DNA from: Candidatus Pacearchaeota archaeon
Lineage (GTDB): Archaea > Nanobdellota > Nanobdellia > Pacearchaeales > UBA284
Reading direction: 5' to 3'
DNA length: 32,000 bases
Assembly (NCBI GenBank): GCA_026016245.1
Contig: CP061211.1
Span: forward strand, 270,001-302,000
Below the pieces are notes generated by a model that saw only the letters and a list, made by a program, of their open reading frames with translations, was not told where the DNA came from and ran no database searches. Position numbers and translations under genes: made by a program. Of the stretch, positions 24,860-31,035 are shown piece after piece. The stretch's first letter is position 1, and every line of letters starts with the position of its first letter.

Positions 24860-26989
24860 ATGAAATCAGCAGAGCTCAAGAAGAGATATATAGAATTTTT
24901 CAAAAAGAAAGGACATAAAGAAATTCCTAATGCTAGTCTTATTCCAGAACATGATCCAAGTGTGTTATTCACGACAGCTGGAATGCATCCTCTAGTTCCT
25001 TTCCTTCTTGGACAGAAACATCCACAAGGCAAAAGGTTAGTTAATGCTCAAAAATGTTTAAGAACACAAGATATAGATGAAGTAGGCAATCCAATGCATC
25101 TCTCTTTTTTCGAAATGTTAGGAAACTGGTCATTAGGAGATTATTGGAAAAAGGAAGCAACTGAATACAGTTATGAATTTTTAACAAAAATTCTGAAGAT
25201 TGATCCAGAAAAATTATATATCACATGTTTTGCTGGAGATAAGGATGTTCCTAGAGATGAAGAGACAGCAAAAATCTGGCAATCTTTAGGCATTCCAAGA
25301 GAAAGAATTTACTTTTTGAGCAAGGAAGAAAATTGGTGGGGGCCTGTAGGAGAAACTGGGCCTTGCGGACCTGATACAGAGATGTTTGTTGATACAGGAA
25401 AAAAATCCTGTAGTAAGAATTGCCGTCCAGGATGTCCTTGTGGTAAATATTTTGAAATCTGGAATGATGTTTTTATGCAATACAACAAGACAAAAGTAAA
25501 AGCAATTCTCATCGATGCAATTCATTGTTTGTTTGACGAAAATAGAAAGATAAATAAAGAATTATTAGATTCGTTGATAACTTACGATATGTCTTTAATA
25601 ATTGTTACTAATGCTAATCTCGAAGACAAGAAAAACAAACCTCTTACAGAATTAATAAATAAATTTAAAGAGAAAATAGAAATTTTTACTTGTTTTAATA
25701 ATCCAAGTAAAAAAGATTCCAAATATTTTGAAATGTTATTAAAAGAATATAATCTAAAACCAGACGAAGTTATTTATTTTGATCATTCAACAGACAATAT
25801 AAACTCTGCTAGAAAAATAGGTATTAACTCAAAATTATACAAATCTCCTAAACAAATCAAAAAATTCATAGAAGAAAACCTATATTATTACCAATCACTA
25901 AAACAAAAAAATGTTGATACAGGGATGGGGGTTGAAAGAACAGTTACAATACTTCAGGGGGAAAAATCTGTTTATGAAATTAAAATACTAAAGCCAATAA
26001 TGGATAAAATTAAAGAACTAGCTAAGATAAAAGAGCCAGATGAAAAACAACTAAGAAGTATGAGGATAATTACTGACCATATCAGAGCCTCTGTATTTAT
26101 ACTTGGAGATGAAAATTCTGTTGTTCCTAGCAATGTTGATCAAGGTTATATTTTAAGGAGATTTATCAGAAGAGCTATGAGATATGGAAGGCTTCTAGGA
26201 ATGCAAAATTTTATTCAAGAAATAGCAAAAATTGTTATAAAAATTAACAAAGATTATCCTCTAAAGAAAAAGGAAAAATTTATTTTATCTGAATTAAAAA
26301 AAGATGAGGAAAAATTCAGAAAAACTCTTGAAAAAGGCCTTAATAAATTTAATAGGATGGCGGTAGATAAGAAAATCTCAGGTAAAGAAGCCTTTCTTTT
26401 GTTCCAGTCTTATGGTTTTCCAATAGAAATGACAAAGGAACTAGCAGAAGAAAAAAATATTGAGATTGATGAAAAAGGATTTTATCTTGAATATAAAAAA
26501 CATCAAGAAATATCAAGAGTTGGTGCTGAAAAGAAATTCAAAGGTGGTTTATCAGATGCAAGTTATGAAACAACAAAACTTCATACAGCTGCTCATCTTC
26601 TATTATATGCATTAAGAAAAGCTTTAAATCCAGATATTGTGCAAAAAGGTTCTAATATCACCCCAGAAAGAATAAGGTTTGATTTTAATTTTGACAGAAA
26701 ATTAACAGATGATGAAATAAAGAAAGTAGAGAAAATAGTTAATGATAAAATCAAGCAAGAAATTGAAGTTGTGAGAAAAGAGATGCCTGTTACAGAGGCA
26801 AAAAAAATAGCAAAATCACCTTTTGAATATAAAAGCAAGATTGTTTCTGTTTATATTATTGATGATTGCATTGAAATTTGTATGGGGCCTCATGTTAAAA
26901 ATACAAAAGAGTTAGGAAAGTTTAAAATAACAAAACAAGAGGCTGTTGCGGGCGGAGTTAGAAGAATTAGGGCTGTTTTAGAATCTTAA
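24860..26989 (+). CDS. alaS: Alanyl-tRNA synthetase, bacterial-type core, short form without a C-Ala domain, carrying an internal HAD-like insertion
   Basis: The N-terminus (MKSAELKKRYIEFFKKKGHKEIPNASLIPEHDPSVLFTTAGM...FFEMLGNWSLGDYWK...GPCGPDTEMF...FEIWNDVFMQYN...VDTGMGVER) matches the bacterial AlaRS pattern. Editing-domain motifs HTAAHLL (HxxxH) and CMGPH (CxxxH) are present. Confidence 0.9.
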   Translation: MKSAELKKRYIEFFKKKGHKEIPNASLIPEHDPSVLFTTAGMHPLVPFLLGQKHPQGKRLVNAQKCLRTQDIDEVGNPMHLSFFEMLGNWSLGDYWKKEATEYSYEFLTKILKIDPEKLYITCFAGDKDVPRDEETAKIWQSLGIPRERIYFLSKEENWWGPVGETGPCGPDTEMFVDTGKKSCSKNCRPGCPCGKYFEIWNDVFMQYNKTKVKAILIDAIHCLFDENRKINKELLDSLITYDMSLIIVTNANLEDKKNKPLTELINKFKEKIEIFTCFNNPSKKDSKYFEMLLKEYNLKPDEVIYFDHSTDNINSARKIGINSKLYKSPKQIKKFIEENLYYYQSLKQKNVDTGMGVERTVTILQGEKSVYEIKILKPIMDKIKELAKIKEPDEKQLRSMRIITDHIRASVFILGDENSVVPSNVDQGYILRRFIRRAMRYGRLLGMQNFIQEIAKIVIKINKDYPLKKKEKFILSELKKDEEKFRKTLEKGLNKFNRMAVDKKISGKEAFLLFQSYGFPIEMTKELAEEKNIEIDEKGFYLEYKKHQEISRVGAEKKFKGGLSDASYETTKLHTAAHLLLYALRKALNPDIVQKGSNITPERIRFDFNFDRKLTDDEIKKVEKIVNDKIKQEIEVVRKEMPVTEAKKIAKSPFEYKSKIVSVYIIDDCIEICMGPHVKNTKELGKFKITKQEAVAGGVRRIRAVLES
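25496..25894 (+). other. In-frame HAD-superfamily-like domain inserted in AlaRS (about residues 213-345)
   Basis: KAILIDAIHCLFD is motif-I-like (Asp nucleophile, D+2 position is Ile, as in D-x-Y-G-T-L dehalogenase-type variants). LIIVTNA matches motif II, PSKKDSKYFEMLLKEYNLKPDEVIYFDHSTDNINSARKIGI matches motifs III/IV, partly degenerate. It replaces the short loop that bacterial AlaRS has between FMQ(F/Y)N and the L-P-x-K-x-(V/I)-DTGMG segment. Confidence 0.6.
26966..26984. repeat. Direct repeat copy 1 (ATTAGGGCTGTTTTAGAAT) at the live alaS 3' end
   Basis: A 19/19 identity with 27985-28003. It extends to 23 nt with one mismatch (AAG[A/G]ATTAGGG...). Confidence 0.85.
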
Positions 26990-27874
26990 TCTCTCTTTTT
27001 TTAACATAGATATCAAAAATCTGACAAATGATCCCAAATTGCCAGTTCTGTGCATTTTTTGTAAAACTTGATAATACTTGAACTTTCTTTTTTTTGGAAT
27101 ATTTATCATAGGATAGTGACTCTTATGCATTATAAAATTCATTAATAATCTCCCAACTCTGCCATTACCATCAACAAAGGGATGTATTCTTTCAAATTCT
27201 GTATGAAAATAAGAAGCTAAAACTAGCGGATGCAGTTTCTTTTTATTTGTACCATACCATCTTAATAATTTTGCCATTTCTCTAGGAACATCTTGCGGTT
27301 TAGGTGGGATTGATCTTCCAACAAATACCTGAATAGTTCTATATCTGCCTATTTGAGAAATCAAATCTTGTCTTAGCGCATTTATAATAACCAGCTTATG
27401 AATCTCTAAAATAAATTCTTTTGTCAGGTCTTTTTTATAATTTAAGATATAGTCAAATGCTTTTTTATGATTTATTGTTTCATTAATCTCCCTCAAGGAT
27501 TTTGATTTTGGAACAATGCCTTCAAATAGCAAATAAGATGTTTCTGATAAAGTTAGGGTATTTCCTTCTATACCTGTTGAGTCATAAGTAAATAAAGAAC
27601 AAAATGCCTCATATCTATTTTCATAATTTTCCTTGGGTTCTTTAGAAAAATCCCTTTTTATTTTTTCTAAAAATTCGGTTTCTTCTTTTGTCAAGATTAC
27701 ACTAAAAACATTCAACTTTTTATCTGCATCCTTTTCTTTTCTTTTAAGCTCTTCTCTTGTCAGATTAACCCCGAGATATATTCTTTCTTTTTTTACTCGC
27801 TTTCCTTCTCTTATTGCCTTAGCCCTATAATAATATTTTTTTTTGTTTTTTTCTTGAATTTCTGTATGAACCAT
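26978..27874 (-). CDS. Fic domain protein (putative AMP-transferase) with an internal inhibitory-helix motif
   Basis: The canonical Fic motif HPFVDGNGRVGR (HPFx[D/E]GNGRxxR) is present. An upstream STGIEG fits the autoinhibitory [S/T]xxxE[G/N] motif. Its last codons and stop overlap the alaS 3' end by 12 nt. Confidence 0.9.
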   Translation of the reverse strand: MVHTEIQEKNKKKYYYRAKAIREGKRVKKERIYLGVNLTREELKRKEKDADKKLNVFSVILTKEETEFLEKIKRDFSKEPKENYENRYEAFCSLFTYDSTGIEGNTLTLSETSYLLFEGIVPKSKSLREINETINHKKAFDYILNYKKDLTKEFILEIHKLVIINALRQDLISQIGRYRTIQVFVGRSIPPKPQDVPREMAKLLRWYGTNKKKLHPLVLASYFHTEFERIHPFVDGNGRVGRLLMNFIMHKSHYPMINIPKKRKFKYYQVLQKMHRTGNLGSFVRFLISMLKKERLRF

Positions 27875-28005: not shown

Positions 28006-31000
28006 TTACTCAATATAAATTGCTGGTTTTCCTGGTTTAGCTTTCTTTGCTTTCTTTTTTGGATCATAAGTTATTTTGTTAGATGTTTGAAAATCAACTT
28101 TACAATTAAATTCCTTTTCAAGTTCTTTTGGATTATAAACCTTAAGCTCTTTAGGGATAACATAAACATATATTCCTTTGGGTCTTGTTCCTAATATTTT
28201 AACAATCTGTCTTATATCTTGCTTTAACTTTTCTTGGATTTCTTCTTCTTTCTCAAATGCAAGATTAATCTTTTTTTCATTGTATTTTGGCCATGATTCA
28301 AGTGAAATGAATGTCTTATTCCATTGATGCCATAATTCTTCTGTTATGTGTGGACAGAAAGGATGAAGCATTTTCAAAAAAGCTTCTGCTGTTTTTTTAT
28401 CAATTTCTGTGAAATAATCAAATAATTTTCTGATTTTTATCACAGCAAGATTATATCTAAATTCCTTTATATCCTGAGTTACTTCTTTTATTGTCTTGTT
28501 TAATTTGCTTTCTAATCTAGGATCTGATTTTCCAAATTTAAGTTTTGTGAAATAGCCCATAACTCTATTAATAAAACGCAAACTTCCTTCAACACCTTTA
28601 TCACCCCATTTAAGGTCTTTATCAGGGCTAGCCATTGAAACTAAAAATAATCTGGCAGTATCAATTCCATATTTTTTACTGACTTCTTCTGGCAAAACAA
28701 CATTCCCATATGATTTAGACATTTTTCTGCCATCAGGGCCATGTAATACACCCTGATTAAACAGTTTTAGAGTAGGTTCATCAATATTGAGCAAACCTAA
28801 ATCTCGCAAAAATTTAGTATAGAATCTGAAATAAATAAGATGGCCTGTAGCATGTTCTTTTCCACCAATATATTGATCAATTGGCATCCAATATTTTACT
28901 TTTTTCTTATCGAAGATTTTATTTTTGTTTTTAGGATCACAATATCTCAAGAAATACCAAGAAGAATTAACAAATGTATCCATAGTATCTGTCTCTCTTT
29001 TTGCATCTTTTTTACATTTAGGACATTTGACTTTAATCCAGGTTTTTACAGTTTCAAGAGGATTTCCTTTTCCAAATTTAACTTTTTCAGGAAGTTTTAT
29101 TGGTAAATCTTTTTCAGGAACAGGAACAATACCACATTTATCACAATAAATTATAGGAATAGGGGTGCCCCAATATCTCTGCCTGCTTATAAGCCAATCT
29201 TTTAATTTATATTGAATTGTATGTTTGCCTTTGTTTTTTTGTTGTAAGGATTTTGAAATTTCAATGATTGCTTTTTCACTTGTCATCTTGTTAAATTTTC
29301 CAGAATTAACAAGAATACCATAATCAACATAAGCTTGCTTCATTGTTTTCTCACTTAACTTCTTATCTTTTTTTGGCTGTATGACAACTCTAATAGGAAT
29401 TTTGTATTTCTTGGCAAATTCAAAATCTCTCTGATCATGAGCAGGAACAGCCATTACCATTCCTGATCCATACTCTGCAAGAACAAAATTTCCTACATAA
29501 ACAGGAACTTTTTCATTATTAATTGGGTTTATTGCATATTTTCCTATAAAAACCCCTTCCTTGTCCATCTTATCAATATCTTCTTGCTTAATTCCTCTTA
29601 ACTTGCTAACAAAACTCATGACTTCTTTCTCTTGTTTTGTTCCTTTCACTAATTCTGGAAGTTCTGGATGCTGAGCAGATATAACCATGAAAGTCACACC
29701 AAAAATAGTATCTGCTCTTGTTGTGAATATTGGCCATTTTTTTCTTGAAATTACTTCTTTTAATAATTCTGGAAATTCTTGTGTTCCCATATGTTTCTCA
29801 AGAAAATGTCCTTTGTCTTTTAATGTAGTTGGGGGGACATCTAATTTCTCAGAAATTATCCTTACACTTTTTCTTATAGATTCATTTTCATTATTTGAAA
29901 CAAAGATAATAATTTCTCCAATATTCTCTTTAATTTTATTGTCAATTTTAAATCTCAACAAATCTTCAAAGGGCGTTTTTTCCTTTGCATAAGCAATTGC
30001 AGGAGCAATCAAGATTAATTTCTTTATCCTTTTCTTTGTTTCTCCTAACCACCTAATCAAAAAACCTCCTCCCCCGCTATGTCCAATTAAAACACTATTT
30101 TCATTAATATTCAAATTTTTAAATTCTTTCTTCCAATCATTATATTTTGGATTCCAGTTATTAGGCATTAATGGAGCTTCTGTTTTAATTCCTTTTTTTT
30201 CAAGTTGTTTCTTAATCCAAGGAATCCAATGTCTTTCATTTTGCGGAGGTTCTCCTCTAGCTAACTTTTCTTTATCTTTTTTATTTACTCCATGAACAAC
30301 CACGCAGTTAATATCCTTATCCTCAATCTCAAAATCAATATCAACACCATGACTCTTGCCTATCCAATATTTTTGCATTAACTTAATATCTTCTGGCCAA
30401 TCCTTTAGTTTGTCAATTTTATCATAAAGCTCTGAAGCATATTTTGTAATTTTGAAAAACCACTGCTCTAATTGCTTTATCTCAACTTCTGTATCTTCAT
30501 GACGCCAACATTTTCCATTAATAACTTGCTCGTTTGCCAGAACAGTTTTACATCTTGGACAGTAATTAACAGGAGCTTTCTTTCTGTAAGCTATTCCCTT
30601 CTTAAACATCTGCAAGAAAATCCATTGATCCCACTTGTAATAACTAAGATCATGAGTCATAACTAAGCGAGACCAATCATAACTTATGCCAAGACCTTTC
30701 TGTTGTTTGATAAAGTTGGAAATTGCTCTATCTGTATATTTTTTAGGATGAATTTTTTCTTTGATAGCTGCATTTTCTGCTGGTAATCCTAAAGAATCAT
30801 AGCCCATTGGATAAAGAACATTATAGCCTTGCATTCTCATAAATCTAGCATAAATATCCCCAATAGTATAATTAAAAGCATGACCCATATGCAAGCCATA
30901 AGCAGAAGGATATGGAAACATCTCTAATACATAGAATTTCTTCTTTCCCTTCTTCTCACTAACAACAAAGATTTTTTTCTTTTCCCACTCTTGCTGCCAC

Positions 31001-31035
31001 TTTTTTTCGATGGCTTGGAAGTTAAATCTTGCCAT
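28006..31035 (-). CDS. leuS: Leucyl-tRNA synthetase, bacterial-type, carrying an internal alpha/beta serine-hydrolase-like insertion
   Basis: HMGH is present (PYPSAYGLHMGHAFNY). GLPAENAA, the WIGKSHGVDIDF...FTTRADTIFG entry into CP1, AVPAHDQRDFEFA, RDWLISRQRYWGTPIP and a KMSKS loop (RKMSKSYGN) are colinear with bacterial LeuRS such as the E. coli enzyme. Confidence 0.92.
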   Translation of the reverse strand: MARFNFQAIEKKWQQEWEKKKIFVVSEKKGKKKFYVLEMFPYPSAYGLHMGHAFNYTIGDIYARFMRMQGYNVLYPMGYDSLGLPAENAAIKEKIHPKKYTDRAISNFIKQQKGLGISYDWSRLVMTHDLSYYKWDQWIFLQMFKKGIAYRKKAPVNYCPRCKTVLANEQVINGKCWRHEDTEVEIKQLEQWFFKITKYASELYDKIDKLKDWPEDIKLMQKYWIGKSHGVDIDFEIEDKDINCVVVHGVNKKDKEKLARGEPPQNERHWIPWIKKQLEKKGIKTEAPLMPNNWNPKYNDWKKEFKNLNINENSVLIGHSGGGGFLIRWLGETKKRIKKLILIAPAIAYAKEKTPFEDLLRFKIDNKIKENIGEIIIFVSNNENESIRKSVRIISEKLDVPPTTLKDKGHFLEKHMGTQEFPELLKEVISRKKWPIFTTRADTIFGVTFMVISAQHPELPELVKGTKQEKEVMSFVSKLRGIKQEDIDKMDKEGVFIGKYAINPINNEKVPVYVGNFVLAEYGSGMVMAVPAHDQRDFEFAKKYKIPIRVVIQPKKDKKLSEKTMKQAYVDYGILVNSGKFNKMTSEKAIIEISKSLQQKNKGKHTIQYKLKDWLISRQRYWGTPIPIIYCDKCGIVPVPEKDLPIKLPEKVKFGKGNPLETVKTWIKVKCPKCKKDAKRETDTMDTFVNSSWYFLRYCDPKNKNKIFDKKKVKYWMPIDQYIGGKEHATGHLIYFRFYTKFLRDLGLLNIDEPTLKLFNQGVLHGPDGRKMSKSYGNVVLPEEVSKKYGIDTARLFLVSMASPDKDLKWGDKGVEGSLRFINRVMGYFTKLKFGKSDPRLESKLNKTIKEVTQDIKEFRYNLAVIKIRKLFDYFTEIDKKTAEAFLKMLHPFCPHITEELWHQWNKTFISLESWPKYNEKKINLAFEKEEEIQEKLKQDIRQIVKILGTRPKGIYVYVIPKELKVYNPKELEKEFNCKVDFQTSNKITYDPKKKAKKAKPGKPAIYIE
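29740..30312 (-). other. In-frame YdeN/RBBP9-type (PF06821-like) serine hydrolase domain inserted in LeuRS (about residues 242-432)
   Basis: VVVHG...HWIPWIKKQLEKKGI...PLMPN..NPKYNDW...SVLIGHSGGGGFLIRWL...IKKLILIAP...IIIFVSNNENES...KDKGHFLEKHMG.QEFPELL parallels the YdeN family layout, with a GHSxG nucleophile elbow and a GHF histidine. It sits between FEIEDKD and WPIFTTRADT, where E. coli LeuRS has only a short hairpin loop. Confidence 0.65.

Follow-up and report, generated by a model that had tools for sequence, protein, structure and literature searches.

A predicted capless HAD-fold domain nested in the catalytic core of a short alanyl-tRNA synthetase from Candidatus Pacearchaeota

Introduction

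Why should a synthetase, essential for translation, carry a second, enzyme-like domain in the middle of its own catalytic core? This question is raised by the gene for alanyl-tRNA synthetase (AlaRS) in a stretch of 32,000 nucleotides from a Candidatus Pacearchaeota archaeon (GenBank assembly GCA_026016245.1, contig CP061211.1, positions 270,001 to 302,000), hereafter called the window. Within its aminoacylation domain, the encoded protein contains about 131 additional amino acids, for which an earlier note, made from the DNA letters, had proposed a haloacid dehalogenase (HAD)-like fold. Here, we describe the limits, the predicted fold, the active-site residues and the distribution of this insert, and we weigh the explanations that may account for it. 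The coordinates of all features are collected in Table 1.

Results

A short AlaRS interrupted by an in-frame segment

The AlaRS of the window matches PF01411 with an E-value of 2.6e-125 and reaches 815.7 bits with PRK01584, the NCBIfam equivalog model for short AlaRS (cut-off 529), as compared to only 234.2 bits with the archaeal-type model TIGR03683, which lies below the cut-off of 744.7. As fits the short model, the protein has no C-Ala domain. The Pfam tRNA-synt_2c match is broken at residue 212, where the insert begins with VKAIL; it terminates with NLYY. Alignment to insert-free relatives, which sets these limits, shows that the insert takes the place of a three-residue turn (QGE; CAAGGAG in the DNA), resulting in a net gain of 128 residues (709 vs. 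581). The earlier note had correctly given the open reading frame (ORF) and the sequences flanking the insert, ...EIWNDVFMQYNKTK and SLKQKNVDTGMGVER, and residues 213-345 do correspond to nucleotides 25496-25894. The extra in-frame segment indeed starts at 25496, and only its end had been drawn two codons too generously (25894 instead of 25888). The AlaRS sequence resumes behind the insert with a return strand (Y344...D353), followed by the DTGMGVER region, the tRNA-recognition helices and an editing domain (PF07973, tRNA_SAD, E = 5.5e-14), whose HxxxH and CxxxH motifs read HTAAH (residues 575-579) and CMGPH (residues 674-678), respectively.

Table 1. Features of the AlaRS gene, its insert and the neighbouring LeuRS gene (positions are those of the window)
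Feature	Position	Strand	Residues	Basis or remark
AlaRS gene	24860..26989	+	709 aa ORF	short bacterial-type AlaRS, hosts the insert
N-terminal aminoacylation part	24860..25495	+	1-212	Pfam stretch 5-212, AF2 secondary structure, 3HXU alignment
Nested, predicted capless mini-HAD	25496..25888	+	213-343	HAD_2, TIGR01509, TIGR02247, AF2, Foldseek, DNA junctions
HAD motif I variant, ILIDAIHCL	25505..25531	+	216-224	predicted nucleophile D219 at 25514-25516; I221, C223
HAD motif II, IIVTNA	25598..25615	+	247-252	T250
HAD motif III, PSKKDSKYF	25703..25729	+	282-290	K284
HAD motif IV variant, IYFDHSTDNINSA	25772..25810	+	305-317	D308-H309
AlaRS remainder after the insert	25889..26989	+		invariant columns in AlaRS alignment; PF07973; 3HXU/1RIQ alignment
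LeuRS gene	28006..31035	-	1009 aa	
Ser_hydrolase (alpha/beta hydrolase) domain in LeuRS	29752..30324	-	~238-428	PF06821, E 8.7e-11

The closest AlaRS relatives (70-86% identical, 581-590 residues) lack the insert. Three of them, which are syntenic and 84-86% identical, have three residues at the insert site and unaltered flanks. Solved AlaRS structures have six to seven residues at this position (Aquifex aeolicus 1RIQ, 205->212; Escherichia coli 3HXU, 220->228), which matches the short bacterial segment given in the earlier note. The active-site residues N202, V204 and D353 are invariant in the AlaRS alignment and match N212, V214 and D235 of the E. coli enzyme (3HXU). In the AlphaFold2 (AF2) model of the full-length protein (predicted local distance difference test, pLDDT, 89.1; predicted template modelling score, pTM, 0.72), a long strand (197-212) leads directly into the first strand of the HAD domain (215-219), and the final HAD helix (330-339) returns to strand 342-357. 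According to model and alignment, the insert is predicted to sit at the tip of a two-stranded beta-ribbon, 8-9 residues past N202/V204 on one side and D353 on the other, directly before the DTGMGVER region, which we take to be class II motif 3. A 636-residue AlaRS (P0024) has an unrelated, Lys/Glu-rich insert of 43 residues in the same hairpin turn; therefore, this turn appears to be a generally permissive site.

Could the segment be an artefact, that is, a misassembly, a chimera or a bulge-helix-bulge (BHB) intron that is spliced from the mRNA? In a metagenome-assembled genome (MAG), this is merely possible a priori, and we regard its probability as practically negligible. Misassembly is ruled out because the insert recurs in frame and at an identical codon position in 35 independently assembled AlaRS genes; moreover, the coding sequence is under constraint at the protein level. 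The minimum free energy of the junction dimer (-5.9) equals that of shuffled controls (-5.9 +/- 1.8; z = 0.0), and an archaeal BHB intron was dismissed on this ground. An intein was rejected as well, as no intein residues are conserved at the junctions and the fold is that of a HAD rather than a Hint domain, and so was a transposon-like insertion, as the DNA junctions show no target-site duplication. The GC content of the insert (0.231 vs. 0.317 for the remainder of the gene) is lowered by its amino acid composition and not by foreign codon usage, since the GC content at third codon positions (GC3) is alike in both parts (0.188 vs. 0.203). When compared to the insert-free gene of the syntenic genome L001, nucleotide identity is flat on both sides of the insert (0.78-0.82), that is, no recombination tract was detected around it. 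An acquisition of the insert would place the breakpoints inside the conserved flanks, where no trace of them is left.

The insert is predicted to adopt a capless HAD fold

Searched alone, the insert matches HAD_2 (PF13419) with 30.2 bits (E = 5.9e-7) and thereby exceeds the Pfam gathering threshold of 23.8, as does the whole protein (26.5 bits). The best NCBIfam match is TIGR02247 (41.6 bits, E = 1.1e-10), a model of phosphatases resembling the N-terminal domain of soluble epoxide hydrolase (sEH-N). Because of these two E-values, we consider the HAD similarity not to be due to chance. PRK09456 is likewise among the nearest profile relatives, and TIGR01509 is marginally above its cut-off of 29.4 with the insert alone (30.7 bits) and below it with the whole protein (27.3 bits). 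The Pfam and NCBIfam matches begin after the cap region, from motif II onward, and the HAD_2 match covers only profile positions 85-175 of 178.

An AF2 model of the insert, built from 59 homologues, has a pLDDT of 93.2 and shows a capless, five-stranded Rossmannoid core with a flap hairpin: strand b1 (residues 3-7 in insert numbering) is followed by a short hairpin (9-19) and by five parallel beta/alpha units. Foldseek searches with this model returned many HAD structures at a probability of 1.00. The best matches were the sEH N-terminal phosphatase (E = 1.8e-6), YihX, MDP-1, HisB-N and the 137-residue protein 2pr7; E-values for sEH-N and YihX ranged from 1.8e-6 to 2e-5. A C1 cap is absent: only ~30 residues separate D219 from T250, and the model places one short helix and no helical bundle between them. 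Neither Pfam nor NCBIfam yielded a match to a YbaK-fold (tRNA_edit) domain in the AlaRS of the window. Taken together, profiles, structural model and Foldseek matches agree on the HAD-like domain inside the aminoacylation domain that had been proposed from the letters, and they identify it, as far as prediction goes, as a capless (C0) HAD-fold domain nested in the AlaRS catalytic core.

A conserved but non-canonical active site

The occupancy of the four HAD motifs was counted in 201 aligned family copies, and also in sets of 35 AlaRS inserts and 162 free-standing proteins. The assignments made earlier hold, including that of D219 as nucleophile. An Asp is found at this position in 199 of the 201 copies, in all AlaRS inserts and in 161 of the 162 free-standing proteins. 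Two residues downstream (Asp+2), HAD phosphatases have their general acid/base (PMC4081830). In our alignment, this position is never Asp: it is Ile in the window, Met, Ile or Val in motif I of the AlaRS inserts and Val, Ile, Trp, Met, Ala or Tyr in the family at large, and the second Asp of the DxDx[TV] pattern is consequently missing. At position +4, 31 of the 35 AlaRS inserts have Cys. The Thr of motif II is retained in 181 copies, but 15 of the 35 AlaRS inserts (subtype B, see below) have Val. The Lys of motif III is present in all 201, and its surroundings can be aligned with the stretches around the motif III Lys of YihX and TM1254. In motif IV, the first position is acidic throughout (Glu in 151 copies, Asp in 50) and the second is His in 187 copies and in every AlaRS insert. 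The stretch 'YF[DE]H' aligns with 'FFDD' of YihX and 'FED' of TM1254, so that a His stands in for the second of the acidic metal ligands, and none of the usual acidic pairs (DD, ED or GDxxxD) occurs in motif IV of the insert.

The Asp, the Lys, the Asp-His pair and a following Asn are shared by all 35 AlaRS inserts, in which they form the lowest-entropy columns of sequences that are otherwise 33-65% identical. With the nucleophilic Asp, the Lys of motif III and the acid-His pair unchanged in every AlaRS insert and nearly invariant among the free-standing homologues, the suggested catalytically dead scaffold appears unlikely. To judge by its residues, the active site looks conserved and yet non-canonical, having the appearance neither of a dead scaffold nor of a standard phosphomonoesterase.

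A mini-HAD family with several hosts

An exhaustive HMMER search with the insert yielded 374 relatives, the best of which are free-standing proteins of 123-135 residues that span the whole insert. A profile search added 135 copies from bacteria of the candidate phyla radiation (CPR; Staskawicz-, Falkow- and Paceibacterota, SR1) and from DPANN archaea. As judged from these sequences, the insert belongs to a family of ~127-residue mini-HADs that are mostly free-standing proteins of CPR bacteria and DPANN archaea.

Mini-HADs also occur in other aminoacyl-tRNA synthetases (aaRS), at positions that differ from the insertion site in AlaRS. Two leucyl-tRNA synthetases (LeuRS) contain one together with GNAT and Ser_hydrolase domains or with NUDIX and Ham1 domains (P0143, P0178), an Ile/Val-type class I enzyme has one alongside GNAT (class I hosts P0208 and P0154), and an Asp/Lys/Asn-type class II enzyme carries it at the C-terminus (P0231). 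In a protein of 298 residues (P0123), a mini-HAD is the N-terminal fusion partner of ribosomal protein uL22 (PF00237, E = 1.7e-7); further fusions involve a flavin reductase and a SNF2 helicase. Among the synthetases of CPR and DPANN organisms, we also came across an IleRS with a His_Phos_1 domain (L006, 611-4144).

The neighbours of nine free-standing copies include genes for UvrB, UvrC, RecO, MutH, a Holliday-junction endonuclease, a nucleoside phosphorylase, SBDS and exosome subunits, aaRS and ribosomal proteins, which hints weakly at nucleic acids or nucleotides as substrates. In one archaeal cluster (L031, 5001-5384), a subtype B mini-HAD is located between the SBDS gene and the exosome genes Rrp4-Rrp41-Rrp42 and starts one base past the end of the SBDS gene. 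Neither in the window nor in L001-L004 did hidden Markov model searches of six-frame translations detect a free-standing mini-HAD close to AlaRS.

Distribution and history of the AlaRS inserts

At least 35 AlaRS genes from assemblies held by NCBI, JGI, ENA and Logan carry the insert at the same site. Among the 120 best AlaRS relatives, it is present in 13, and the comparison with related AlaRS thus revealed both its absence from close syntenic relatives and same-site copies elsewhere. A pattern scan of GTDB species genomes retrieved 22 loci, 20 of which are AlaRS with insert; the carriers are MAGs of Pace-, Woese- and Nanoarchaeota as well as one Berkelbacteria contig.

In a neighbour-joining tree of the domain, which like the tree of the AlaRS bodies has no bootstrap and a sampling biased to relatives of the query, all 35 AlaRS inserts fall into one superclade with two subtypes. 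Subtype A inserts are confined to AlaRS, and subtype B also comprises a few free-standing copies. Since all AlaRS-borne copies form one clade, the capture of a mini-HAD by AlaRS was, as far as these sequences tell, ancient and probably single. A subtype B insert is also present in an AlaRS encoded by a Candidatus Berkelbacteria MAG (L020; JBAXWD010000033.1, 3001-3381). Its neighbours, an NrnA-like DHH protein and a lytic transglycosylase, are bacterial; therefore, the composite gene is not confined to DPANN archaea but exists in a CPR bacterium, too.

In the body tree, subtypes A and B are intermixed, and the AlaRS of the window is placed among insert-free sequences. Pairs of the same subtype have identities of 0.62 in the body and 0.56 in the insert; for pairs of different subtypes, these values are 0.61 and 0.39, respectively, as exemplified by L014_A and L021_B (body 0.70, insert 0.43). 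The histories of insert and body therefore differ, and the insert behaves as a cassette that may have been gained, swapped or lost independently of the AlaRS body. Four syntenic genomes, whose AlaRS are 82-86% identical, share the gene order Elp3 - methyltransferase - AlaRS - ... - LeuRS, and only the window has the HAD insert. A single gain in the lineage of the window is more parsimonious than at least three precise losses, a choice that neighbour-joining trees with biased sampling do not settle.

The neighbouring LeuRS and the surrounding locus

The nearby LeuRS gene also hosts a nested domain, a Ser_hydrolase insert of ~190 residues directly before the CP1 editing domain. This domain is present in ~85 of the 120 best DPANN LeuRS relatives, some of which also have NUDIX, and absent from ~30, including the nearest ones, L001 and L003 (81-86% identical). 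The earlier note had considered it unlikely to be a coincidence that two neighbouring synthetases each host a hydrolase-fold domain. A coupling of the two inserts was rejected, however, as the four syntenic genomes display four different combinations: both inserts in the window; the LeuRS insert without the AlaRS insert in L036; neither in L003; and neither in L001, where a free-standing Ser_hydrolase, 51% identical to the insert of the window, is encoded directly downstream of LeuRS. The inserts vary independently and do not trace back to one event. The LeuRS inserts of the window and L036 are 50% identical, their LeuRS bodies ~80%, which parallels the behaviour of the insert in AlaRS. The AlaRS and LeuRS inserts thus appear to be separate outcomes of a tendency, seen across the lineage, to nest small enzyme domains in aaRS genes.

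Between AlaRS and LeuRS, the window contains an ORF of 298 residues with a Fic motif (HPFVDGNGRVGR) on the minus strand (26978-27874), which overlaps the 3' end of AlaRS by 12 nucleotides. The corresponding slot is occupied by two small ORFs and the Ser_hydrolase gene in L001, by a 96-residue ORF in L036 and by nothing in L003. Upstream of Elp3, two short adjacent ORFs in L003 (7425-8000) and L004 (2060-2635) match UMPH-1, a pyrimidine 5'-nucleotidase belonging to another HAD family, and look like a split or decaying gene.

Discussion

We estimate a probability of roughly 0.55 that the AlaRS insert represents a nested, independently folding and working mini-HAD, which acts as an accessory module in a permissive AlaRS loop and has a cassette-like history. 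That is, the HAD domain would fold and work on its own, and alanylation would require none of it; the insert-free syntenic relatives with their unchanged flanks suggest that it is dispensable for AlaRS. Selection acting on the active site of the domain itself would maintain it, and it is presumably kept in the mature protein. Exchange of the cassette may proceed through recombination within the two highly conserved motifs EIWNDVFMQYNK and KQKNVDTGMGVER that flank it. The domain would hardly be a canonical Mg2+-dependent phosphomonoesterase, because Asp+2 is always replaced by a hydrophobic residue and the second Asp of motif IV by His. Our guess is a specialised site for phosphoryl or acyl transfer, whose substrates may have good leaving groups or be macromolecules, as in other capless HADs; the substrate is likely tied to tRNA, nucleic-acid ends or nucleotides. 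Tethering of mini-HADs to proteins of translation may serve co-expression or proximity in gene-poor genomes.

Several observations weigh against this explanation. The appearance of cassette exchange could also result from an ancient polymorphism of subtypes A and B together with numerous precise losses, and the absence of bootstrap values and the bias in sampling limit what our trees say on this point. No conserved operon emerged among the nine neighbourhoods of free-standing mini-HADs inspected. Finally, the residue signature of the AlaRS-borne copies (Cys at +4 of motif I, Asp-His, Asn at +5 of motif IV) differs from that of the free-standing copies and might reflect an adaptation to AlaRS.

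Alternatively, the HAD domain may act in cis on a substrate or product of AlaRS, such as a mis-activated aminoacyl-adenylate, pyrophosphate, Ap4A, mischarged tRNA-Ala or a tRNA with a damaged 3' end. In favour of this, the clade of AlaRS-borne copies is old, has invariant residues of its own and is constrained to a similar degree as the body (0.56 vs. 0.62 identity); moreover, the other mini-HAD hosts are mostly tRNA- or rRNA-binding proteins, and capless HADs typically act on macromolecular substrates. The topological position is also the same as that of the INS domain of bacterial prolyl-tRNA synthetase (ProRS), to which such an accessory would be analogous and which itself has free-standing homologues acting in trans (PMC3973320). 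However, syntenic relatives of 84-86% identity do without the insert, the family is mostly free-standing and occupies unrelated positions in other aaRS, the AlaRS editing domain with its HxxxH and CxxxH motifs is intact, and hydrolysis of aminoacyl esters is not known for the Asp chemistry of HADs. On balance, we deem action in cis unlikely. We are more doubtful about an inert HAD-fold scaffold that would merely bind, e.g. for oligomerisation, tRNA contact, partner recruitment or as a sensor of phospho-Asp or a ligand. Loss of the general acid/base and of the second motif IV Asp across the family, loss of the motif II Thr in subtype B (15 of 35) and the shortness of an AlaRS that lacks C-Ala would all suit such a role. 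Yet invariance of Asp, Lys, acid-His and Asn in 35 otherwise diverged inserts is the pattern of a working site, and the insert does not compensate for the missing C-Ala, because the insert-free relatives lack this domain equally.

The patchy occurrence in close relatives, the decoupled histories of insert and body and the location of the insertion site between the most conserved AlaRS motifs are also reminiscent of a selfish or neutral in-frame cassette with an intein-like ecology, which does not splice and spreads by gene conversion between these ultra-conserved motifs. Such an element is very improbable, as the insert has a HAD rather than a Hint fold, lacks intein residues, and shows neither an endonuclease nor a target-site duplication nor RNA structure at the junctions; furthermore, its GC3 equals that of the host gene, its active site is strictly conserved and a large free-standing family exists. 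Finally, a bolder reading is conceivable: the mini-HAD could be a hitherto unrecognised, translation-linked enzyme of CPR and DPANN organisms that acts in cis on tRNA- or adenylate-related substrates when residing in aaRS, and that is passed as a recombination cassette between divergent alleles. Healing of tRNA 3' ends and clearance of activated by-products are conceivable roles in this case. We offer this reading as a speculation with rather long odds. If true, it would reveal a new kind of quality-control or repair module for synthetases and a prokaryotic, polymorphic counterpart of the accretion of domains by eukaryotic aaRS.

The accretion of domains by aaRS is commonly portrayed as a trend of eukaryotes. 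In the present organisms, whose genomes are among the smallest, whole small enzymes are nested polymorphically in the catalytic cores of essential synthetases: a HAD domain in the present case, and Ser-hydrolase, NUDIX, Ham1, GNAT and His-phosphatase domains in relatives. The HAD-containing AlaRS gene occurs on either side of the divide between archaea and bacteria, and the presence or absence of the insert at 84-86% identity provides a natural series for studying how a nested domain affects a synthetase and how permissive loops are used. The data also define a widespread, uncharacterised HAD variant (Asp...Thr...Lys...[D/E]-His, without Asp+2) and raise the question of whether fusion to essential genes is a means by which CPR and DPANN organisms secure the expression of house-keeping enzymes. 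A full-text literature search, outside of which many subscription journals lie, retrieved no account of an AlaRS with a HAD domain, nor of DPANN or CPR synthetases with nested enzyme domains. Database pipelines have given the protein no more than an automatic name; the same 709-residue protein is deposited at NCBI (Candidatus Pacearchaeota MAG) as 'HAD hydrolase-like protein'.

How does the nested mini-HAD compare with known systems? The INS editing domain of bacterial ProRS is located between motifs 2 and 3 and has free-standing homologues (PMC3973320). The arrangement in AlaRS resembles it in that a hydrolase domain with free-standing single-domain homologues is nested, in a lineage-patchy manner, between motifs 2 and 3 of a class II core. 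INS, in contrast, has a YbaK fold, is specific to aaRS and is a proven aminoacyl-tRNA deacylase, whereas mini-HADs also occur in unrelated hosts and positions. By profile and structure, the nearest enzymes are the HAD-IA members YihX, a glucose-1-phosphatase, and sEH-N, which have the same order of motifs I-IV; the mini-HAD differs from them by the lack of a C1 cap, the hydrophobic Asp+2 and the change of DD to [DE]H in motif IV. Capless HADs such as MDP-1, HisB-N, KDO8P phosphatase and 2pr7 of Corynebacterium glutamicum likewise consist of a minimal Rossmannoid core with a flap, and the insert aligns to capless structures with target-normalised TM-scores of 0.56-0.68 at 10-16% sequence identity. 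However, MDP-1, HisB-N and KDO8P phosphatase carry the canonical DxDxT, and none of the named proteins is nested in another one. Surface loops accepting recruited domains are familiar from other aaRS, e.g. GAD in bacterial AspRS, CP1 and the leucine-specific domain in LeuRS, or GST, WHEP and EMAPII domains in eukaryotes. Those domains are fixed in their lineages and mostly aaRS-specific, whereas the mini-HAD is a generic small enzyme fold of prokaryotes with minimal genomes, polymorphic in presence and cassette-like. Inteins, finally, share with it the in-frame nesting at highly conserved sites of essential proteins and the patchy distribution, but the insert lacks a Hint fold, the Cys/Ser...His-Asn-Cys/Ser/Thr residues at its junctions and an endonuclease.

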